Positions 3,588-63,821 of a stretch of 64,000 nucleotides of DNA are shown here, piece after piece; the stretch's first letter is position 1; the number at the start of each line of letters is the position of its first letter. The notes beneath the pieces are model-generated. The model made no database searches. It had not been told where the DNA came from and was given only the letters and a program-made list of their open reading frames with translations. Source of the stretch: a virus. Where the stretch lies: UHGV virus genome UHGV-0175639. One strand, 5' to 3'. Made by a program: the position numbers and the translations under genes.

Positions 3588-3997
3588 TCGTCATCCTCAT
3601 CCGAGTCATCCTCATCACAGGATGAGAGTAGTGGGTTAGTCATTCGCCCTACTTGAGTGGCGTAGCCACGCCGACAGAGATTGCGCAGCACACTGTATAT
3701 TTCGAACATCTCGGTTCGTTCATCGCCAACATCAAGCTCAGATGCTATAGCGTGGCATTCAGTCGCGAGAGCCGATATTTTCTGAAATAACTCTGCATTA
3801 TTCACTGTTCGACTCCTGCGGCGTTCTGGTAGTGGCATCCAGTGTGTGACATTGCTAATCAGACCATATTCATTAGTTTGAGGATGGTTGCCGTTATCGT
3901 CTCCGTATTTAAGACTCTCCATAAAGCCATAATGCCTATCACCATTAACGCTCACAAAGCCGTAATAAGCAGGTATAACTGAATCGCCACGGATAAT

Positions 3998-14386: not shown

Positions 14387-14980
14387 CTAAGCAGCCTTCT
14401 TTGATGGTCTTTTTTTCCTGATCACATTCGCATGATCATACCCTCCCAGACTTTTCATGACGTCCAAAGGGATCTTGCTTATAGAGTGCCCAGCGTCCTG
14501 ACAGAATCCTCGAAAAACAACGAGCATACTGCCACCTGGGTTGATGTTTACTTCTACCTGACCCAGATTTACGTCAGGTTCGACAAACGCTACGCGGCCA
14601 CCAGACAGAATAATCGTCTCATTCGCACACTCTGTTGCACGCTCATACCACTTTGTATCTAGGGATTGAGGAATTAGCATCACTGTTGTAACTCCGCGAG
14701 CCTGCTCACGTATAGCCGCATCAATCCAGGGGTAGATTTTGGAGTAGGGTGGATTGAGGAAGGCAATTGTACCTGGCTGTCCCCATTCAGATTTCAAAGC
14801 ATCACGCTCAACGCCTATGAAATTAGGCAGCTTTGCATTGTCCTTGTTGCAGGCAACGTCAACATCAAATGTCACTCCAAGATAACGTTGAATGGCAGAA
14901 AACAGCCAGTCAGGTGTTCTCCAGAGGTCACGAAGAGAGTTGTCGCGCTTTCGCTGTTTGATTTTTTCGGCTGCAATCAT
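14387..14980 (-). CDS. phage-type DNA N6-adenine methyltransferase (Dam family)
   Basis: WRTPDWLF...FDVDVACN...FLNPPYS motifs of the phage Dam family. Confidence 0.75.
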   Translation of the reverse strand: MIAAEKIKQRKRDNSLRDLWRTPDWLFSAIQRYLGVTFDVDVACNKDNAKLPNFIGVERDALKSEWGQPGTIAFLNPPYSKIYPWIDAAIREQARGVTTVMLIPQSLDTKWYERATECANETIILSGGRVAFVEPDVNLGQVEVNINPGGSMLVVFRGFCQDAGHSISKIPLDVMKSLGGYDHANVIRKKRPSKKAA

Positions 14981-29843: not shown

Positions 29844-30497
29844 TTAAATCGTGTCGGAGGGCTTTTTACGCGCGTTACGCGCTGCGTTTATGCTTATGAC
29901 GCCAGCTTTTGGACGTGGGTCAACAAGGTTAAGCTCTTCTTCACTGTGGTATTCGAGGTCGAACTCACGTTTTACATGTCTGATGTAGATTGCGGTGAGC
30001 AGGCTATCTTTGGTTAGGAAGTGTCCGTAGGATTTGCGGATCACTTCTTCTACCTTCTCGATTTTCTCACCCCCCATACAGAGATGATTAAACCGGCTGT
30101 GTTTTCGCAACATTTCGTCTACTGGACCTGAGTAAACCTTGTCTACTTTCCCAAAACGGATGATTTTCCCTGTGTCTGCGGATACAAGGCAAATCAGCTT
30201 GTCTGGTGATAAACGATCTCGCCACGTCACACCTGAACGGAGTGTGTTGAAGTAGGGGGCATCCAATCCGATGATCGGTTTACGAAATGCGAGCAATGGA
30301 ACGTACCTGATGCAACTGTTTAAATGAAAATTCACACCAGCCTTATCAAGTTTAATTCTGGTTTCGTAGATCGGGCACTTCGCCGCTATACCGCAGATGT
30401 CACAAAGCAACTTCTGCTTATTCAGGTTGGAATTTGATTCGATAGTGTAGGAGCCGTCTTCAAGACGACGAACCCAGCGCGTGCGTTTTAGATCCAT
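29844..30497 (-). CDS. hypothetical protein, 217 aa
   Basis: ORF only. Confidence 0.5.
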   Translation of the reverse strand: MDLKRTRWVRRLEDGSYTIESNSNLNKQKLLCDICGIAAKCPIYETRIKLDKAGVNFHLNSCIRYVPLLAFRKPIIGLDAPYFNTLRSGVTWRDRLSPDKLICLVSADTGKIIRFGKVDKVYSGPVDEMLRKHSRFNHLCMGGEKIEKVEEVIRKSYGHFLTKDSLLTAIYIRHVKREFDLEYHSEEELNLVDPRPKAGVISINAARNARKKPSDTI

Positions 30498-30584
30498 ATG
30501 TCATTTTTCTGTGATTGTTAGCCGAGGCAACGATAACCCACCAGGTGCGCCGAAGGTAGTAAATGCCTGTTTTAATTATTCACA

Positions 30585-30660
30585 TATCCACAGGATAGAT
30601 CCTAATAAAGAGATCCATAGATAGATCCTTGTATAGATCAAATAAGATCCCCGATCGCTG
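30585..30660. promoter_or_regulatory. origin-like region: DnaA-box-like TATCCACAG plus a dense GATC cluster
   Basis: At least six GATC within about 70 bp just upstream of the repA iterons. Confidence 0.4.
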
Positions 30661-30697
30661 TAAGCCGCGCCACGACTGGTCTGAAGCCATGTTCATG

Positions 30698-30798
30698 TAT
30701 GCTACCAGCGGTAATTGATAGTCTGTCAACGGTTCGCCGTATGCTGCCAACTGTTTTTGGTATGCTGCCAGCGGCAAATCAAGTATGCTGTCAGCGGT
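30698..30798. repeat. iteron array upstream of repA (four copies, consensus TATGCTNNCAGCGGT)
   Basis: Copies at 30698, 30740 (degenerate), 30761, 30784. Confidence 0.8.
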
Positions 30799-30817
30799 TG
30801 AATGACAAAGGTGTCCA

Positions 30818-31913
30818 CATGTCCACAAAAAATAAAAAAGGTAAAAATAACAAAGAAGTAGAAGATAATCTCGACAACTTTGAAGAAGGTTCCCTTGAAT
30901 TGTACACAGGGGAACTTGTCCCTAATAGCAACAATACAGTCCAACCAATTGCGTTGATGCGGCTGGGGTTGTTCGTGCCCACGCTCAAGGGGACAAAATA
31001 CAGCAAGCGTAATAAGCCAAATGAGATCGATGCTTCAAAGGAGCTTGTTCAGCTCGAAGTAGCCCGTTCTGAAGGTTATTCCGATATCAAGATAACCGGT
31101 CCTCGTCTCGACATGGATCATGATTTCAAAACGTGGGTGGGCGTTGTGCGTTCGCTGGCAGAATACGGCGAACCTAACGGTCGTGTCGAGTTAAGCATCA
31201 CGAAATTTGCGAAGTTTTGTGGCTATCCATCGTCACAGATCCGCAAAACACTCCGCGACCGGCTTACAAACAGTCTTTTGAAGATCATGCGTACAACTCT
31301 GTCTTTTCAGAGAACGTATGAAGAAAAGAATGTCGACGGCTCTAACAAGATCTCGCTTCTGATGGTGCACCTCATCAATAGCGTGGACTACAACGAGCAG
31401 AAAGATACGGTGGTGTTCTATGCAGAACCGAAGCTGGCCGAACTATATCGCTTTGACCATAAGGTTCTTTTGCAGTTAAAGGTTATCAATAAGCTACCAC
31501 GCAAAGAAACAGCACAGGCTCTGTACACCTTCATCGAAAGTCTTCCAACCAAGCCTGCGCCGGTATCGCTTGCTCGATTACGTGCGCGACTCAATTTGAG
31601 TAGCAGGAATGTCAGCTCGCAGAATCAGACTATACGTAACGGCTTAAAAGCTCTCCAAGATTTGGGCTATCTCGAATACAGCGAGATTAAGCGAGGGCGG
31701 TCGATCTATATCCAGATTCACAGCCGCAATCCAAAACTCAAAGTCGCACCGCCAAAACCTGAAGACATCGAACCCAAAAAACCAGATGAGAAAGCTGGGG
31801 AAATTGATGCCAAACAGAACATTATCAACAAGATAACCGAACTTTCGCAGAATTTGACGCCTGAAAATATCAAGATGATTGAGATCCTTTCCAATAGTCT
31901 CAAACTGCTTTGA
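30818..31913 (+). CDS. repA: RepA-like replication initiator (iteron-binding)
   Basis: 365 aa from MSTKNKKGK; flanked on both sides by iterons; start of the longer tracked ORF rejected because it overlaps the iterons. Confidence 0.7.
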
Positions 31914-32445
31914 TATGCTGTCAGCGGTGAAATGTATGCTATCAGCGGCTATTTTTCTGAAAAGTATGCTGTGAACGGTTAAAGATATGCTACCAGCGGT
32001 ATAGTGAGATAAACGTATGCTGTGAGCGGTAAATCATCTATCACCACTCAATGCTCTGTCATACCTCCCCAGTGGTTACTAACCTCGAAGAGTGCATTCC
32101 ATATAGGTTTGCGCTCACTAACATTCTATTGCTATTGCGCTGATTGCTTGTAGTGAAAGGCATTTATTGCCTGCTGCTCCCTGATAGAACGTATGCTGTC
32201 AGCGGTGTTTTATTGAGGAATTTTTGTTTGGATATGCTATCAGCGGTAATTAATGGTATATGTCAGACCTTCGTATGCTGCCAGCGGTAATTTTGTTCTG
32301 GTTATACCCATACCGGTACACATTATTCATGCAATGTCTTAAGTATGCTGCCAGCGGTAAAAAATCGAGTAAAGTATGCTGTGAGCGGTGATATAGACTC
32401 TCGATATGCTATCAGCGGTAGTTGATTGTGTATGCTGTCAGCGGT
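31914..32445. repeat. iteron array downstream of repA (about 12 copies of the same 15-mer, irregular spacing)
   Basis: Copies at 31914, 31935, 31965, 31986, 32016, 32192, 32233, 32274, 32344, 32374, 32405, 32431. Confidence 0.8.
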
Positions 32446-32492
32446 GACGACTATGAAATATGACTGCGGAACGAGCCGCAGTCAGTTTGCAT

Positions 32493-32705
32493 TTAGTGTA
32501 TTTTCTTTAACAGACCCCAAAGTGTTCCGGCTTTTGTAGTCAGTTTTCCTGTTTCTGGATCGTACATACGCCATTCACGCCGCTGGTGGACGATATACCC
32601 ATCTTCACGTTCCAGACGCTCAAGAATGCCAGGCTGCTTGAAACCCTTAGCACGCCAGTAGCCGCTTGTTTTCTCGATTTCCAGACCTGCCAGTGTTAAT
32701 GCCAT
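32493..32705 (-). CDS. hypothetical protein, 70 aa
   Basis: ORF followed by hairpin GACTGCGG...CCGCAGTC. Confidence 0.4.
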   Translation of the reverse strand: MALTLAGLEIEKTSGYWRAKGFKQPGILERLEREDGYIVHQRREWRMYDPETGKLTTKAGTLWGLLKKIH

Positions 32706-33040
32706 TACCCAACCTCCTTGCAGTCATCGAAAAGGTAGCTTTGCTGAGAAGCGTGAACGCCATAAAAGCCCTTGTATTTGTTGTATACGAAGTGGTCTTC
32801 TCCGACGCCGGTTAATTTGCCATTACGATTTGTGAGATATGGGGATGACAACACTCGATCGTCACGCACAATATAGAACTGGTCGCCGCTGTCTACGACC
32901 ATCGCTCCATATGGTGCTTTTATGACGTCGGTAAGAGCGCCATTCTTAACGTCGGCTACAGACATTTCACACTGATAAACAGTGGTGTCGGCCACAACGA
33001 TCGAAGAAAGAAACAACAGCGCGAATGGGATGGTCTTCAT
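32705..33040 (-). CDS. secreted protein, 111 aa
   Basis: N-terminal signal peptide MKTIPFALLFLSSIVVA. Confidence 0.5.
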   Translation of the reverse strand: MKTIPFALLFLSSIVVADTTVYQCEMSVADVKNGALTDVIKAPYGAMVVDSGDQFYIVRDDRVLSSPYLTNRNGKLTGVGEDHFVYNKYKGFYGVHASQQSYLFDDCKEVG

Positions 33041-56068: not shown

Positions 56069-57214
56069 ATGAAATACATAAAATCTTCATCGTTGCTGGC
56101 ATTAACTTTGCTTTTTAGCTCTGGATTCGTTAACGCAGACAATAAACAAACGCTGATAGAAGCCGCTACCGCAGGGGATACCGCAGCACAAAGTGAGTTA
56201 GGGACAAATTATTTTGATGGTATCAATGGTTTTGATAAGGATGTAGTTGAGGCCAAGAAGTGGATTGATCTCGCTGCAGAAAAGGGAGACAAAGTAGCAT
56301 ATTATGCACTTGGGGTTATGTACACATTTGGCGAGGGTGTAGATAAAGACCTAAATAAAGCTGTTGAGTACTACAAACTTGCGGGGGATGCTCGTGAAGG
56401 TAGAGCCTACAACAATCTTGGTGCTATTTATCAAAAGGGGTTGCTTGGTAAAGTAGATCATGCACTCGCCATTAAATACTTCAAACTAGCCTCTGATGCC
56501 GGGTATGTTAAAGCAACTTCAGTTCTTGGGGCGTATTACCAATATGGTAAAGGCGTTAAAAAGAATTATAAAAAGGCTTTTACTTATTACAAAAAGGCGG
56601 CAGACCAAGGCAGTTCAGAAGCTATGATAGGATTAGGAATACTATACGATGATGGGTTAGGCGTTAAACGCAATGATGCAGAAGCAGTTAAGTGGTATAA
56701 AAAGGCAGCGGAACTTGGAAACGCCGACGCCATAACCAATCTTGGCATTATGTATGAGAATGGGGAAGGTGTAAAAAAGGACTATAAAAAAGCAGCCGAC
56801 CTTTATCAGACTGCTTGCGATAAAGGAGAAAAAAGAGGCTGCGATTACATTGCAGAACTGAAAGAAAGCGGCAAATATCGAGCGCCGGCTTCCAAAGCCA
56901 AAACAAAATCCGCCACCCAGCGACTTATTGCTAAATCCATTGATAAGGGCGTTAACGCTACATTTACCTGGCAGGGTGATGATGCTACCTTCACCGCTAA
57001 TGATGGCAAAGTTGACTGCACATTCCTGAAGGATTTTTCAGAGAAAGGAGGCAATCTGGCTACCTCGTTTGTTTGCACAGATAACGTTCAAATCATCCTG
57101 AAGCAATTCAGAGATACCAAAAATGCCTACCTCGCGGTAATGACTGACAACTTCAATACTGAAGTTAAATCATTTTCGGTCAATGTGTATGTGACTAATA
57201 CTGGTTCAAACTAA
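56069..57214 (+). CDS. secreted Sel1-like repeat protein
   Basis: Signal peptide MKYIKSSSLLALTLLFSSGFVNA; at least six Sel1-type repeats followed by a C-terminal domain of about 120 aa; AT-rich by eye. Confidence 0.7.
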   Translation: MKYIKSSSLLALTLLFSSGFVNADNKQTLIEAATAGDTAAQSELGTNYFDGINGFDKDVVEAKKWIDLAAEKGDKVAYYALGVMYTFGEGVDKDLNKAVEYYKLAGDAREGRAYNNLGAIYQKGLLGKVDHALAIKYFKLASDAGYVKATSVLGAYYQYGKGVKKNYKKAFTYYKKAADQGSSEAMIGLGILYDDGLGVKRNDAEAVKWYKKAAELGNADAITNLGIMYENGEGVKKDYKKAADLYQTACDKGEKRGCDYIAELKESGKYRAPASKAKTKSATQRLIAKSIDKGVNATFTWQGDDATFTANDGKVDCTFLKDFSEKGGNLATSFVCTDNVQIILKQFRDTKNAYLAVMTDNFNTEVKSFSVNVYVTNTGSN

Positions 57215-58387
57215 TGCAGCTATGCCTTTTACCTTGCTTAAAAGTTCAAGCTGTCGTGAGTAAGGTTTTGCGCAATAGTAGGCTTTGATAATCTGCCCCG
57301 GGGTCGCATCGCCGGGGTCGAGTCCTTCCTCGCCCAAACATGCAATTTTCACATTAAGACCAATACTGCTCAGTCGCCTGGCTGCGGCCATAGTGTTGCG
57401 TATAGCCTGCTTTTCACTATCCCACATCATAATCACATTACGTAGCCCACGCGCCTTGAGCGTCAGGAACGCGCCCAGCTGATCTTCTGCATCCTGAGTG
57501 GTGTTACCAGATAGATGCATCCCGAACGTTCCTATTGGTTCCACGTAATCACGTAATGTTTCTTCGTCAAAAATAGCTCGTTTGACCCCCATAACATCGA
57601 ACGCCCCCTCACAGACAACTACAGTCTGTTTGCCGACTGCATTATGGCCGTTGTAGAGAAACCTACCTGAAGCTGGAAGCTGCATAGGAAAGAGGTAGCG
57701 ACGTTCTGCTGCACCGGTAATGTCACGCCCCTGGAAGGTCTTCATCACGCCATCCAGATCGTAAACCGGTATCAGGATGCGCATATCAAACACCTGCCCT
57801 TTGACCTGGTCTGTGTACGGATCGACGTATGCGTGCTTGCCTTCGACGCAGTAACGCAGATCAAAGTATTTGGCCAGATCCGGGGAGATATGGCGCTCCA
57901 CCAGATAATCAGGAAGACGACCGTCAATGGGGAGTTCGTAATGTCGAGGGAGAGCTACTGGCCCTTCGAGTTCAACCTTGCTGGCCAGCACGACCTCTTC
58001 CTTCTTCGGCGCCCATCCTTGTGAGATCAGCGCGTTCTGCACATATTCCTCGAACTGTCGTCGTGATTTACCGCTGTAGTGCTTGAGGAAGATCAGCTTA
58101 TTGAACTGAATCTCTTCGGGATGATCACCAGCAAAGCATTTGCCGACGCCACTGGTCAGATTGAAATATACCTTCCAGTTGGAGCTGCCACATACCGGAC
58201 ACTCCTTGATATTCACTTCACGACCGCGAGCACTCACGCCTCCACGTCGATAAACGATACCTTCAGTGTCCAACCATTGTTCAAAATCTAATTCGGTAAT
58301 TAGCTCTTTCAGCTCGCTCACGATAATTCCACTTTTAATAGGCAATATTGTGACCAACCTAAATGTTGATATAATATAAAGGTTCAT
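57206..58387 (-). CDS. DNA primase (zinc ribbon plus TOPRIM)
   Basis: CPVCGSS zinc motif and TOPRIM-like VVVCEGAFD; start set at the conserved leader. Confidence 0.7.
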   Translation of the reverse strand: MNLYIISTFRLVTILPIKSGIIVSELKELITELDFEQWLDTEGIVYRRGGVSARGREVNIKECPVCGSSNWKVYFNLTSGVGKCFAGDHPEEIQFNKLIFLKHYSGKSRRQFEEYVQNALISQGWAPKKEEVVLASKVELEGPVALPRHYELPIDGRLPDYLVERHISPDLAKYFDLRYCVEGKHAYVDPYTDQVKGQVFDMRILIPVYDLDGVMKTFQGRDITGAAERRYLFPMQLPASGRFLYNGHNAVGKQTVVVCEGAFDVMGVKRAIFDEETLRDYVEPIGTFGMHLSGNTTQDAEDQLGAFLTLKARGLRNVIMMWDSEKQAIRNTMAAARRLSSIGLNVKIACLGEEGLDPGDATPGQIIKAYYCAKPYSRQLELLSKVKGIAALV

Positions 58388-58468
58388 GTGTTTTTCTTTT
58401 GTGGTTTGGCAAAAGAAAAGTTGTTTCACCAATGAATCAAGCGTGGAGGTGTTCTCCACGCTTATTTT

Positions 58469-59809
58469 TTAGGTAACGTCTAAGATTCGCTCAATGAAGC
58501 GCATTTGTTCGAGGTTTTGTTTAACGCGAATGCTGATCCCTCCCTGCTGGTTACGTGAACCAGCAAAGTAGAGACGAGCCTCTCCTTTCGCTTCTTCTTC
58601 TTCGGTTTTGTTGATCGTTATTACCAGGTCAGCAATACGTACTTTTTCGAAGTTGTCGGCAGCCTGCATCATTGTGGCATCTTCTGTCGCGCCACCTTCA
58701 CGGTTTGTCTGCGATGCCGTAATCCCAGCAACGTTATGCTTGTCATAAAGAGCACGTAAATCGGTGTAGATACTACGAATGTTGGCGCGATCATCACGAA
58801 GGTCATAACTGGCACGCATCAAATCTGCGTAGTCGACAACAACCATGTCAGGCACCATGCCGTTGGCTTTCATGCTGTTAAGCATACGGTCCAGATCTGC
58901 CGGTGACATACTTCCTGACGGACGCTCAACCACCCACAAACTACCAATCCCCTTCGTGGCTCCCAACTCTGCCAACTTACGATGAACCTCATCGCGCCGT
59001 TCCACCAGCTTGGACATTTCTGTCTCCGACAATCTTGCATCAAAACGGTCGGATAAAATGGTGGTGTGAACCTCCAGCGAGAGATACAGAACATTGTAGC
59101 CAGCAAGCGTTGCGTTTATGGAAAACTCACCCATTGCGGTCGATTTGCCGGATTTAGCGAACCCCATGAAGAGCACCATTTCACGCTTCGCCCAGCCTTT
59201 TTGGTACAGCAACCTATCGAGCAGAGGGAGTCCAGTTGTAATGCTGTTTGGCACATACTCCTCTGAAGCCTCATATTCACGCGCTTTCAATCGCTCACTT
59301 GCGGAGGTGTAGTAGTCATAGATTCCGGTCGCTTCGTTCGAGCCTATCTGCTGAACCTTGGCCATGATTGCCATCGCCCCCTGAAAGTCGCCCTTCTCTT
59401 TCAGTTCAGCAGCTTTAATCAGAGCATCATCAAACGCTACACTTTTTGCGAATGTGGATACCTGGTCAACCATGTACGTGGTATCAGACAATTTTTCTGC
59501 AAGGATGCGCTTAAACGCAGCAACAACATCCGGGAAGAGTTCCTCACGGATGGTCTTATCGCGTTTCGCGCGCTTAAGCATATCCAGAATCGCAGATGAA
59601 GAAGGCGCGCTCTTGTACATACGGTAATAGCCCGAAACCATATTAACCAATATGGCATTGGCCGCATTGGCAAATTGGCTAGGCACAACCAGATCTCCCG
59701 CACGAGTAAGAAACTCGTGATCACGACAAAAATATGCCGTCAGTCTGTTCTGGAAATCTTCATCAAACTCTTCGGACAGCCCGCGTCCTGTATGGCAAAG
59801 TTCGGTCAT
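58469..59809 (-). CDS. DnaB-like replicative helicase
   Basis: RecA-fold Walker A GFAKSGKST and Walker B VVVDYADL. Confidence 0.8.
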   Translation of the reverse strand: MTELCHTGRGLSEEFDEDFQNRLTAYFCRDHEFLTRAGDLVVPSQFANAANAILVNMVSGYYRMYKSAPSSSAILDMLKRAKRDKTIREELFPDVVAAFKRILAEKLSDTTYMVDQVSTFAKSVAFDDALIKAAELKEKGDFQGAMAIMAKVQQIGSNEATGIYDYYTSASERLKAREYEASEEYVPNSITTGLPLLDRLLYQKGWAKREMVLFMGFAKSGKSTAMGEFSINATLAGYNVLYLSLEVHTTILSDRFDARLSETEMSKLVERRDEVHRKLAELGATKGIGSLWVVERPSGSMSPADLDRMLNSMKANGMVPDMVVVDYADLMRASYDLRDDRANIRSIYTDLRALYDKHNVAGITASQTNREGGATEDATMMQAADNFEKVRIADLVITINKTEEEEAKGEARLYFAGSRNQQGGISIRVKQNLEQMRFIERILDVT

Positions 59810-62793: not shown

Positions 62794-63153
62794 TTAACCT
62801 TTCTTCATCAACTCGCGTTTGATTTCATCGGTACGCATCGTGACATCGGCAGCTGTGATCGCCTCGTTAAGTTTCACGATGTCCTCGATTTCCTGCGGTG
62901 TCTTCTCCGCAAGATGGAAAATAGCAGCACGAATCACGTCAGAACGAGTGAACTTCTCGAAGCGAGGGATGAACTTCATCATCTCCAGCAGTTCGAAGTA
63001 TTCGTCCTCCAGTGACATTGTGCGGCTTTTAATTTTCTCTTTGCCACGAGTCGGGCGTCCCTGTGGTCTGACTGGTTGGCGCAAAGGAGTTGTGTTCTTA
63101 GCCGGTGCATCAGGCTCTTTGCGCTTTGCTAGGTCACCCATTTTCATGGACAT
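62794..63153 (-). CDS. small partition protein (ParG/ParB-like centromere binder, putative)
   Basis: 119 aa, basic N-terminus, directly downstream of parA with overlapping stop and start. Confidence 0.5.
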   Translation of the reverse strand: MSMKMGDLAKRKEPDAPAKNTTPLRQPVRPQGRPTRGKEKIKSRTMSLEDEYFELLEMMKFIPRFEKFTRSDVIRAAIFHLAEKTPQEIEDIVKLNEAITAADVTMRTDEIKRELMKKG

Positions 63154-63821
63154 TATTCTTCTTCCTCCAGACTCAACAGATAATCTACAAATTCTTCAAA
63201 CTCGGCTTCCGCCTTTTTGTCGCGCTCGCTACCGGTCATTTCAAAGATAGAACGACCAGACTCTTCCGCATCATCATAGACGTTGCGGTTATATAGATTG
63301 ACTGGCGCAGACTCGATGCCAAACGTCTCAACAATCTCTTTAGCCGCCAGAATGCGAGACACTTGTGATGGCAAAGCCGGGCACTGGTTCATGACCGCGC
63401 GGACCTTCACTTTATCGTTTACATTGCGAACATTGTCGATAATAGGATCGATGTCACGTAAAGATTTCAAATCACGACGCTTAGGACGCAGCGGGATAAT
63501 GATAACGTCAGCCATCAGCATCGCTTGTCGCTGAATTTCGGAGTCGAAGCCACCAGCATCTACCACTACAAACTCAGCTCTACCCTGAAGCGATTTTAGG
63601 TGCTTAATGATGTCATCCTGAACGTATGCAAAAGGAATCAGCTCAAGGTCTTCGTTCTGTCGACGGTCTTCACACCAGCTCGTTGTCGTGCGCTGAATAT
63701 CTATATCGGTAATATAAACCTTCTTCTTCTTTTTGACTTTCAGGCAAACGGCAATTTGCTGGGCAACGGTGGATTTGCCAGGCCCGCCCTTTGTGCCGCC
63801 AACCACAAAGATCTTGGTCAT
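63153..63821 (-). CDS. parA: ParA-type partition ATPase
   Basis: Deviant Walker A GGTKGGPGKST; 222 aa. Confidence 0.85.
   Translation of the reverse strand: MTKIFVVGGTKGGPGKSTVAQQIAVCLKVKKKKKVYITDIDIQRTTTSWCEDRRQNEDLELIPFAYVQDDIIKHLKSLQGRAEFVVVDAGGFDSEIQRQAMLMADVIIIPLRPKRRDLKSLRDIDPIIDNVRNVNDKVKVRAVMNQCPALPSQVSRILAAKEIVETFGIESAPVNLYNRNVYDDAEESGRSIFEMTGSERDKKAEAEFEEFVDYLLSLEEEE

Follow-up and report, generated by a model that had tools for sequence, protein, structure and literature searches.

What is the task of a predicted replication gene, repA, that lies in viral DNA between two arrays of short repeats: does it maintain a plasmid, drive lytic growth, or mark something else altogether? The gene stands near the middle of the stretch analysed here (64,000 nucleotides, referred to below as the window). 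Our answer, to which we would attach a probability of about 0.88, is that at positions 30576–32445 an SSU5/pHCM2-like phage-plasmid some 110 kb long has its plasmid-prophage replicon, a member of the P1/RepFIB iteron-replicon family.

Part of pECOH89 from Escherichia coli H89 matches the region at 98.5% identity (NC_023916.1; 95% of a 2-kb query covered), as does p09EL50 (NC_018651.1; 98.5%); the RepA proteins of these two plasmids have been reported to be identical (PMC3999498). By its identity to pECOH89 we assign the replicon to the type IncFIB(H89-PhagePlasmid), a name taken from the literature. It is clearly related to the textbook unit of phage P1, but in an ordinary way; plasmid typing already uses it as a marker, and there is no biology here that is new in kind. 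From homology, we infer that the region would confer replication and incompatibility. The publications on pECOH89 and p09EL50 that we searched name the rep gene alone and do not describe iterons, DnaA boxes or the GATC block; our literature searches found no description of iterons for SSU5-, pHCM2- or pECOH89-type replicons, and no published experiments on the present one.

The origin

A preliminary description of this DNA had likened the layout to that of P1-type replicons, and the likeness turns out to be one of homology, with every named element present: RepA is 43.5% identical to its P1 counterpart, and the outer half of the origin (30570–30680, comprising DnaA boxes, GATC heptamers and a GC-rich spacer) matches P1 oriR at 86 of 111 positions (77%, E 5e-17). 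The same description had begun the region at 30585 and ended it at 32445; the end is exact, but the start clips the first of two tandem, overlapping DnaA boxes, so that 30576 is the better boundary. The DnaA-box-like 9-mer that it had placed before the first array is indeed there, in the form of these two boxes: TTATTCACA (30576–30584, plus strand) matches TTWTNCACA at all nine positions, and ATATCCACA (30584–30592, plus strand) at eight. By count alone such 9-mers are not above chance (six in the 64-kb window, 7.3 expected); the boxes carry weight because of their position and because both (30576–30592) align with the annotated DnaA-binding site of P1 oriR, which makes them candidate DnaA sites at the outer end of the origin. 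Two weak DnaA-box-like 9-mers, GTGTCCACA and ATGTCCACA (7/9 each; 30811–30827, plus strand), overlap the start codon of repA, and in the equivalent place Klebsiella has GTATCCACA and P1 has CTATCCACA.

Next to the boxes is an AT-rich block (30594–30660, plus strand; 33% GC) made up of heptamers of the form AGATCCn, which aligns to Dam methylation sites 1–5 of P1 oriR and is conserved in the Klebsiella and SSU5 relatives. The cluster of GATC sites reported earlier is borne out: six (starting at 30598, 30612, 30624, 30636, 30646 and 30653) fall within 59 bp (30598–30656), and this is the densest group in the window, which elsewhere has at most three per 80 bp. The block is presumed to be the opening region, under Dam/SeqA control. 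The element has a gene of its own for a Dam-family N6-adenine methyltransferase (14387–14980, minus strand; Pfam PF05869 Dam, E 2.9e-38), whose predicted product could methylate the origin cluster; a published account of pECOH89-type elements counts ‘dam’ as one of their conserved genes (PMC3999498). The GATC block is separated from the iterons by a GC-rich spacer, GCCGCGCCACGACTGG (30664–30679, plus strand), in which 15 of 16 positions agree with the P1 sequence GCCGCGCCACGTCTGG and which is conserved in Klebsiella pJN2-26 as well. GC skew profiles showed no switch at the origin and were uninformative, because skew here tracks the uniform minus-strand orientation of the genes.

The iteron motif, TATGCTRYCAGCGG, with a 16-bp core, RTATGCTRYSARCGGT, is present in 17 plus-strand copies between 30698 and 32444, with 0–3 mismatches. 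Matches with no more than three mismatches number 30 against 12.2 ± 3.4 expected, a figure reached by none of 100 shuffles. Five direct copies form the origin (incC-like) array (30697–30799, plus strand), their cores starting at 30698, 30719, 30740, 30761 and 30784 (spacings of 21, 21, 21 and 23 bp). Only four had been counted before; the second (30719) is degenerate, with three mismatches, and is kept in phase in every relative examined. Five origin iterons with the same phasing are found in relatives from four other genera (Klebsiella, Salmonella and Cronobacter among them), and in the alignment to Klebsiella the iteron columns are 88% identical against 58% for the spacer columns. The iteron sequence varies along with RepA, being TATGCTGYCAGCGG here, AACCACTGTAGAGAG in SSU5 and TGTGTGCTGGAGGG in P1. 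Outside the arrays, the sole copy in the window with two or fewer mismatches is an inverted one within repA, and the genome of the closest full-length relative has no iterons elsewhere. A 19-nt stretch of spacer plus iteron 3 (30731–30749) recurs in inverted form inside repA (31156–31174) with 18 of 19 positions matching; as the Klebsiella homologue shows no specific conservation of this internal copy, we put it down to chance or coding constraint.

The repA gene and its product

The initiator gene runs from 30819 to 31913 on the plus strand, preceded by a Shine-Dalgarno sequence (AAGGTG, 30808–30813), and its predicted product is an iteron-binding initiator of 364 aa, as judged from homology, Pfam and an AlphaFold2 (AF2) fold. 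The RefSeq call of 404 aa starts at an ATG at 30699 and so translates the iterons. A candidate promoter, TTGGTA-18 nt-AAGTAT (30757–30786, plus strand), lies between and over iterons 3–5, about 2 nt from where P1 PrepA (TTGCTA-18-TAGGAT) falls in the alignment; PrepA is itself situated within P1 iterons 12–10. A consensus scan called no plus-strand sigma-70 promoter upstream of repA, and its overall count of sites equalled chance, so it is positional homology that nominates this candidate.

In tblastn comparisons the 43.5% identity to P1/P7 RepA (E 2e-64) extends over residues 32–309, or 76% of the protein, and identity to SSU5 RepA is 47.9%. Conserved motifs include NNTVQPVALMRLG, RLDMDxDFKTW and YTFIESLP. 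There are 477 homologues at E ≤ 1e-5, with PF01051 shown for all 120 of the matches listed, and Pfam Rep3_N scores 37.5 bits on RepA (cutoff 22.4). The nearest relatives outside the SSU5-like clade are RepFIB-type/RepA plasmid initiators (50–59% identical), which are closer than P1. When the AF2 model (pLDDT 73.6) was compared with known structures by Foldseek, domains 2–3 of RctB gave the best PDB match (5tbf, E 1e-7), followed by RepE (1e-4), the Rep-iteron-DUE complex 8aan (7e-4) and pi. The model thus has the Rep_3 (WH1-WH2) fold of iteron initiators, and RepA is predicted to adopt it. Searches of the PDB by sequence alone, with RepA or with a 28-sequence profile, gave nothing meaningful, and an NCBIfam search with RepA had zero matches.

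Distribution, and the plasmid state

Of 5426 complete E. coli genomes, 119 (about 2%) carry the region, and all 185 places at which it was found are on plasmids, none on chromosomes. Three rep_cluster_488 records were inspected (pEC881_2, p2014C-4015-1 and pSTM_Phi), and no other replicon is typed on them. Plasmids of 62–64 kb in Escherichia albertii have an identical RepA and a replicon that is 99.2% identical; in the one inspected, phage genes have decayed and IS elements have inserted.

Might the RepA/iteron origin nevertheless serve also, or mainly, for lytic replication, handing over to machinery of the element itself, so that there would be no dedicated low-copy origin? Among the genes of the element are those for a DnaB-like helicase, a primase, DnaE (Pol III alpha), a ligase and RNase H, and the closest full-length relative has no second annotated initiator, although the many genes of the element that have no assigned function could conceal one. 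P1 itself uses a separate lytic replicon. The features of the P1 plasmid origin have been kept here, with the repA promoter as a candidate; a large negative-control array is ill-suited to run-away replication, and the phage-defective, decayed derivatives in E. albertii keep the replicon intact. A lytic role of this kind therefore seems to us unlikely, and the region is better read as a plasmid replicon.

At a distance of 31 kb from the replicon there is a gene for a ParA-like P-loop ATPase of 222 aa (63153–63821, minus strand; Pfam MipZ, AAA_31, CbiA, ParA), with a small downstream partner (62794–63153; PHROG 5111). These two are likely to be a partition system; a quick look upstream of the ParA-like gene found no convincing centromere repeats.

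The downstream array

Downstream of repA, where ‘about twelve’ iterons had been noted, there are exactly twelve, all direct, the first of which starts on the last base of the repA stop codon. Five make up cluster 1 (31913–32030, plus strand; cores at 31914, 31935, 31965, 31986 and 32016, spaced 21, 30, 21 and 30 bp) and seven cluster 2 (32191–32445, plus strand; cores at 32192, 32233, 32274, 32344, 32375, 32405 and 32431, spaced 41, 41, 70, 31, 30 and 26 bp). The 160 bp of non-repeat DNA between the clusters (32031–32190) have no Rfam match and no credible ORF. They contain CAGTGGTTACTAACC, which was considered as an SSU5-type iteron core and rejected: it is a single copy, not above chance, in a gap that is naturally deleted. 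Beyond the last iteron, at the junction with a convergent minus-strand gene, a GC-rich hairpin with a 9-bp stem (32461–32484), terminator-like on both strands, is kept in E. coli relatives with changes in the loop alone, and probably insulates the array against read-through transcription.

The number of downstream iterons is variable, the versions compared having 12, 12, 9, 8, 10, 11 and 8. In phage PhiR41_1, three iterons of cluster 2 are missing through an exact iteron-to-iteron deletion of 87 bp, which leaves nine; in the natural plasmid p204A1-109K, which has eight, a clean iteron-to-iteron deletion of 257 bp has removed iterons 3–5 together with the 160-bp spacer, from which it follows that the spacer is dispensable for maintenance. 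A fixed upstream array and a variable downstream one fit the idea of a fixed origin with flexible copy control, as in incC and incA of P1, and the downstream array has the sequence features of a copy-control and incompatibility locus (incA), which is the role that we would give it.

Could it instead be the centromere of the partition system, or a second origin? Arrays of short direct repeats are centromeres in other plasmids, and it was beside the ParA-like gene that the quick look failed to reveal centromere-like repeats. On the other hand, the downstream repeats are of the same type as the origin 16-mer, and because of this they should bind RepA rather than a protein of the ParB/ParG type; the array sits at the position of P1 incA; copy number ranges from 8 to 12 among relatives that are maintained; and, as regards a second origin, there are no adjacent DnaA boxes and no GATC block belonging to the array. 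Either alternative must be rated very improbable beside a copy-control locus.

The suggestion that the array is a degenerate CRISPR, or that repeats flanking repA are attL and attR (as in the PHASTER-derived annotation of GenBank MZ779062, which marks two of them as att sites), has in its favour the short direct repeats and variable spacers but is scarcely credible, since CRISPRs were taken to have repeats of at least about 21 nt, regular spacers of similar length and usually cas genes or a leader, whereas here the core is only 16 bp, the gaps are irregular and mostly 5–25 nt (21–176 bp from start to start), an identical repeat builds the origin array upstream of repA, the closest full-length relative has no annotated cas gene and Rfam has no CRISPR match, while the supposed att pair is merely two of 13 iterons and the element is never chromosomal among the 5426 genomes. 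The preliminary description was right to warn that the array could pass for a CRISPR, which by its 16-bp core, its irregular spacing and the lack of annotated cas genes it is not. The Rfam scan (30300–32800, E ≤ 1) recognised no RNA family, antisense-RNA control or CRISPR repeat.

How might the replicon work?

The scheme that follows is drawn entirely from P1, the present replicon contributing its anatomy and its homology. RepA monomers would bind the five origin iterons, which are phased two helical turns apart, and therefore present their sites on one face of the DNA; host DnaA would bind the tandem boxes at the far end of the origin; and the two proteins together would open the AT-rich block of GATC heptamers, after which a replicative helicase could be loaded. 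The six GATC sites would tie initiation to adenine methylation, so that after firing the hemimethylated origin could be sequestered. As the candidate repA promoter lies within iterons 3–5, we propose that bound RepA represses its own synthesis. The twelve control iterons would not be needed for initiation, and would keep the copy number low, through titration of RepA and through RepA-mediated pairing with the origin iterons (‘handcuffing’); the control array would then also be an incompatibility determinant. For P1 itself, handcuffing and control by iterons are established (Abeles et al. 1995; Das & Chattoraj 2004; both cited in PMC7157519).

A bolder proposal starts from the DnaB-like helicase, primase and Pol III alpha which this element has and P1 does not; it would have RepA, bound at the iterons, recruit the helicase-primase of the element itself (genes at 57206–59809) and not host DnaB/DnaC, perhaps by means of its RepFIB-type C-terminal tail, so that the plasmid state would be largely independent of the host replisome, with the deletions in the control array (from 12 iterons to 9 or 8) acting as a natural copy-number dial. 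We think it distinctly unlikely that this is so.

Definition of the replicon has some practical consequences. About 2% of the complete genomes of E. coli include an SSU5-like phage-plasmid, and some of these elements have resistance genes; it is mainly their annotation and typing that should benefit. (pECOH89 bears CTX-M-15.) Knowledge of the exact origin, initiator start and control array makes it possible to construct mini-replicons, and to predict incompatibility between the H89, pKPHS1 and SSU5/pHCM2 replicon types. The natural deletion variants of the array may alter copy number, and hence the dosage of resistance genes. Three recurrent kinds of database error can be corrected, namely the 404-aa RepA that includes translated iterons, iterons given as attL/attR, and RepA called a ‘replication helicase’.

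Relationship to other replicons

The replicon of pECOH89 and p09EL50 (IncFIB(H89-PhagePlasmid) in PlasmidFinder, rep_cluster_488 in MOB-suite) is the same replicon, with no difference of kind. The next point of reference is P1 (and P7), with which there is homology both of RepA and, in DNA, of the origin half, and which has the same tandem DnaA boxes, GATC heptamers and GC-rich spacer, five direct origin iterons about 21 bp apart, and a first incA iteron starting on the last base of repA; the candidate promoter here would share with P1 PrepA a position inside the iterons. Spacings of control iterons are in both cases mostly whole helical turns (about 30–31 and 40–41 bp in P1; 21, 30 and 41 bp here). 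The iteron sequence differs, the core here having about 2 bp more than that of P1 between the conserved TGCTG and GG. P1 incA has nine iterons, three direct and six inverted, whereas here there are twelve, all of them direct, with 160 bp between their two clusters, so that the geometry of pairing may differ. In P1, parA-parB-parS adjoins incA, whereas here small minus-strand genes follow the array and no par operon is adjacent. Compared with P1 RepA, the present protein is extended by 30 aa at its N terminus and by 55 aa at its C terminus. We did not retain an assignment to the P1 replicon in the narrow sense (the Punavirus maintenance region), in view of the missing adjacent parA-parB-parS and of incA iterons that are not mostly inverted.

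The chromosome 2 initiator of Vibrio cholerae, RctB, is likened to RepA through the structural match of its domains 2–3 to the predicted model; no sequence similarity between the two proteins was detected, and RctB is larger, with extra domains and with 39-mers for negative control, unlike RepA here. The origin that it serves, ori2, has iterons, a DnaA box, a dependence on GATC sites and negative control based on handcuffing (PMC6090056).

Closer in protein sequence are the RepFIB-type initiators (P307/F RepFIB, IncFIB(K), IncFIB(S) and RepA of Pantoea/Erwinia megaplasmids), which are 50–59% identical to the present RepA and have in common with it a C-terminal linker and helical tail that P1 is without; for several of these relatives the source gives the name ‘RepFIB replication protein A’ or ‘protein RepA’. 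RepFIB repA is also flanked by repeat arrays on both sides. The carriers of RepFIB-type replicons are conjugative or large plasmids, and the present carrier is a phage-plasmid.

Finally, the replicon of SSU5, pHCM2 and pLF82 (Cyrano) occupies the same genomic position between the same flanking genes. Its RepA is 47.9% identical, and it follows the same plan of DnaA boxes, GATC block and iterons with a downstream array, but it has another specificity, with the iteron AACCACTGTAGAGAG; SSU5 carries a tandem pair of origin-like copies ahead of repA, and its downstream iterons do not all point the same way. The present and the SSU5-type replicons look like the two sides of a swap of replicon modules in one phage-plasmid backbone.

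Anatomy of the replicon

Reading of positions 30200-32900, together with repeat and motif searches, gave the following plan for the plus strand. Two overlapping DnaA boxes located by motif search (TTATTCACA, 30576-30584, and ATATCCACA, 30584-30592) are followed by a block of AGATCCn heptamers containing six GATC sites (30598-30656; AT-rich in the GC profile, at 33% GC), a GC-rich spacer evident on reading (GCCGCGCCACGACTGG, 30664-30679) and five origin iterons, whose cores begin at 30698, 30719, 30740, 30761 and 30784. The 16-mer RTATGCTRYSARCGGT is the iteron core. Next come a Shine-Dalgarno sequence (AAGGTG, 30808-30813) and repA (364 aa; ATG 30819 to TGA 31913), beyond which twelve control iterons, all oriented as in the origin, form clusters of five (31914-32030) and seven (32192-32445), set 160 bp apart by non-repeat DNA. 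A GC-rich hairpin (32461-32484) stands directly before a convergent minus-strand gene. Divergent from the origin is a minus-strand gene for a 217-aa protein of PHROG 2105 (29844-30497) that has no Pfam match; some 80 bp separate its start codon from the DnaA boxes, and its position is kept in all those relatives in which the flank was inspected (Escherichia coli, E. albertii, Klebsiella, Salmonella, Cronobacter and SSU5).

The preliminary description of a replicon here was borne out by the statistics: iteron matches with up to three mismatches number 30 in the window against 12.2 +/- 3.4 expected, a figure that no shuffle reached, and the six GATC sites in 59 bp are the window's densest cluster (the runner-up has 3 per 80 bp). 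The upstream array was also correctly recognized, but it has five iterons rather than four, the second being degenerate yet in phase; likewise the region was rightly placed, but its start moves from 30585 to 30576 to take in the first DnaA box. The count of DnaA-box 9-mers is not significant by itself (6 in the window vs. 7.3 expected), so these boxes are given weight because of their context. At up to two mismatches, the iteron is absent from the rest of the 64-kb window save for one inverted copy inside repA. Within the repA coding sequence, the 19 nt of 'spacer + iteron 3' recur in inverted form at 18/19 positions (30731-30749 vs. 31156-31174), a match for which a rough hand estimate of the chance expectation is near 1e-3; as it is only degenerate in the Klebsiella homologue, it probably reflects chance or coding constraint.

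RepA as an iteron-binding initiator

RepA matches Pfam Rep3_N above the gathering cutoff, and has no match in NCBIfam. In tblastn searches of phages, its relatives were Klebsiella SSU5-like elements (85-88%), SSU5 and Cyrano (47.9%), and the RepA proteins of P1 and P7 (43.5%, E 2e-64); in a large protein collection, the closest proteins from beyond the clade were RepFIB/RepA plasmid initiators of Enterobacterales (50-59%). The PDB entries best matched by an AlphaFold2 model (mean pLDDT 73.6, with the N-terminus and linker disordered) were iteron initiators: RctB domains 2-3 (E 1e-7), RepE (1e-4), a Rep-iteron-DUE complex (7e-4), a WH1 domain and pi. PDB searches by sequence alone were empty. 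From its family and predicted fold, then, RepA is a winged-helix iteron-binding initiator, not a helicase; both contradict the label 'replication helicase' attached to it in PHROG 775 and in the RefSeq records of P1 (NC_005856) and SSU5 (NC_018843).

The RefSeq/PGAP version (WP_024180339.1; cluster P0001) has 404 aa from an ATG at 30699, inside iteron 1. Its extra 40 residues are translated origin iterons (30699-30818), with ML[PS]AV-like peptides every seven codons (21 bp), and this over-extended protein stands for 667 member sequences. A Shine-Dalgarno sequence precedes the start at 30819, which agrees with the starts of all homologues outside the clade.

Iteron arrays across relatives

Upstream iteron spacing is constant among relatives (21/21/21/23 bp), and between the window and Klebsiella identity is 88% in iteron columns vs. 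58% in spacer columns. Five upstream iterons are found in the window and pEC881_2 of E. coli (each with 12 downstream), pSTM_Phi of Salmonella (10 downstream), pCsaC105731a of Cronobacter (11) and pJN2-26 of Klebsiella (8). The E. coli phage PhiR41_1, counted for the downstream array only, has 9 downstream iterons, having lost three by an exact 87-bp iteron-to-iteron deletion (window 32344-32430). In the E. coli plasmid p204A1-109K, likewise counted for the downstream array (8), an exact 257-bp deletion (window 31949-32205) joins iteron 2 to iteron 6, removing four of the twelve and the entire 160-bp gap. A fixed origin array accompanied by a flexible, partly dispensable second array is what the P1 model of origin (incC) and control (incA) iterons would predict. 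If the control array works like incA, the PhiR41_1 and p204A1-109K variants should have higher copy number.

The iteron sequence changes along with the initiator (TATGCTGYCAGCGG in the window, AACCACTGTAGAGAG in SSU5, TGTGTGCTGGAGGG in P1). Upstream of repA, SSU5 has two tandem origin-like copies where the window has one (1765-2010 and 2140-2445 of L004, the stretch fetched from it): the distal has intact GATC heptamers and five iterons, and the proximal has heptamers decayed to GAACC/GACCC and 5-6 iterons. This may represent a split into origin and operator.

The iteron origin might conceivably also serve lytic replication. That the control array is a centromere, for which it might be said that a search for a true centromere found none, is unlikely, its repeats being identical to origin iterons. 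The attachment sites that MZ779062 places in the iterons flanking repA are a PHASTER artefact, since attR and attL of pJN2-26 (2378-2397 and 3648-3667 of its stretch, L005) are simply two of 13 iterons. A CRISPR array, for which the downstream repeats could be mistaken, is excluded by a repeat of merely 16 bp with short, irregular gaps, by an origin array built of the identical repeat, and by the lack of an Rfam match or of an annotated cas gene in the closest full-length relative.

The element and its distribution

The 2-kb replicon region has matches in 143 records of plasmids, the majority of them non-mobilizable ones of about 110 kb from E. coli, and in three phage-deposited records, including Escherichia phage PhiR41_1. 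Of the 5426 complete E. coli genomes searched, 119 have the region, and all 185 places are plasmid-borne, none chromosomal. The closest full record, pEC881_2 (99.4% identity), carries tail, capsid, portal and terminase genes as well as DnaE, a DnaB-like helicase, primase, ligase, RecA, nrdAB, thyA, dfr and a Dam-type methylase, a gene set typical of an SSU5/pHCM2-like phage-plasmid. The replicon region is 98.5% identical to each of pECOH89 and p09EL50; pECOH89 is the reference for PlasmidFinder type IncFIB(H89-PhagePlasmid) (PMC3999498). MOB-suite typing of these relatives' records gave rep_cluster_488 only.

Plasmids of 62-64 kb in E. albertii have the identical RepA in a replicon of 99.2% identity. 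In the one inspected, p2014C-4015-1 (63.8 kb), the phage genes are decayed, with IS911 and ISEc20 insertions and no structural genes in the first 50 kb; dnaE is shortened and followed by an HNH endonuclease gene, and hdeAB has been acquired. It and at least six similar records, from wild-bird and human sources, keep a ParA-like gene and helicase/primase genes. To judge from its gene content, p2014C-4015-1 looks like a phage-plasmid turned plain plasmid, and retention of the replicon alongside decayed phage genes is an indication that it serves plasmid maintenance.

A proposed mechanism

Anatomy and homology are what we have established; the following steps are extrapolated from P1. RepA monomers would occupy the five in-phase origin iterons and DnaA the tandem boxes, whereupon the AT-rich GATC-heptamer block between them would open and helicase be loaded. 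GATC methylation would license initiation, the hemimethylated origin being open to sequestration after firing. RepA at iterons 3-5 would repress the repA promoter, and the twelve downstream iterons would act on RepA by titration and on origin iterons by pairing (handcuffing), giving low copy number and incompatibility. Precedents for P1 iteron control were reportedly set out by Abeles et al. in 1995 and by Das and Chattoraj in 2004, both cited in PMC7157519. The window encodes a Dam-family N6-adenine methyltransferase (14387-14980, minus strand; PF05869, E 2.9e-38), which could maintain methylation of the six origin GATC sites without help from the host, and a DnaB-like helicase and primase (57206-59809, minus strand); the nearest relative's annotation adds RNase H and 5'-3' exonuclease to the replication genes. 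A general review of precedents for such a mechanism is available (PMC6090056).

Comparison with P1

Annotated features of P1 in its curated record are oriR, which has one DnaA site and five Dam sites, then five incC iterons (copies 14-10) with the promoter PrepA inside them, repA, nine incA iterons from the last base of repA, and the par operon. Window 30570-30680 aligns with the DnaA-box/Dam-site/GC-spacer part of oriR (86/111 identity, E 5e-17), as do the Klebsiella and SSU5 versions. The P1 promoter TTGCTA-18-TAGGAT has a positional counterpart, to within about 2 nt, in TTGGTA-18-AAGTAT of the window (30757-30786); as this pair is not picked up by a generic scan for consensus promoters, we only infer a repA promoter here. 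In both elements the first control iteron overlaps the repA stop codon. P1-homologous RepA, the oriR alignment and this matching plan thus support the P1-type reading in the preliminary description.

There are also differences. The window's control iterons are all direct and split in two clusters, whereas P1 has three direct and six inverted, and SSU5 a mixture. The par operon adjoining incA in P1 is absent beside the window's array, a ParA-like ATPase gene lying 31 kb from the replicon (63153-63821). Unlike P1 RepA, the window's protein has RepFIB-type terminal extensions; in the alignment, the C-terminal 55-residue linker and helical tail are shared by RepFIB-type proteins, P1 RepA alone lacking them. 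The element also has its own replisome genes and Dam-family methylase; to our knowledge, P1 has no comparably near-complete replication toolkit. In the searchable literature we found no account of the cis elements belonging to replicons of this type. Its rep gene is already known as a typing marker and its architecture follows the textbook P1/RepFIB plan, to which kind it is a well-resolved addition.
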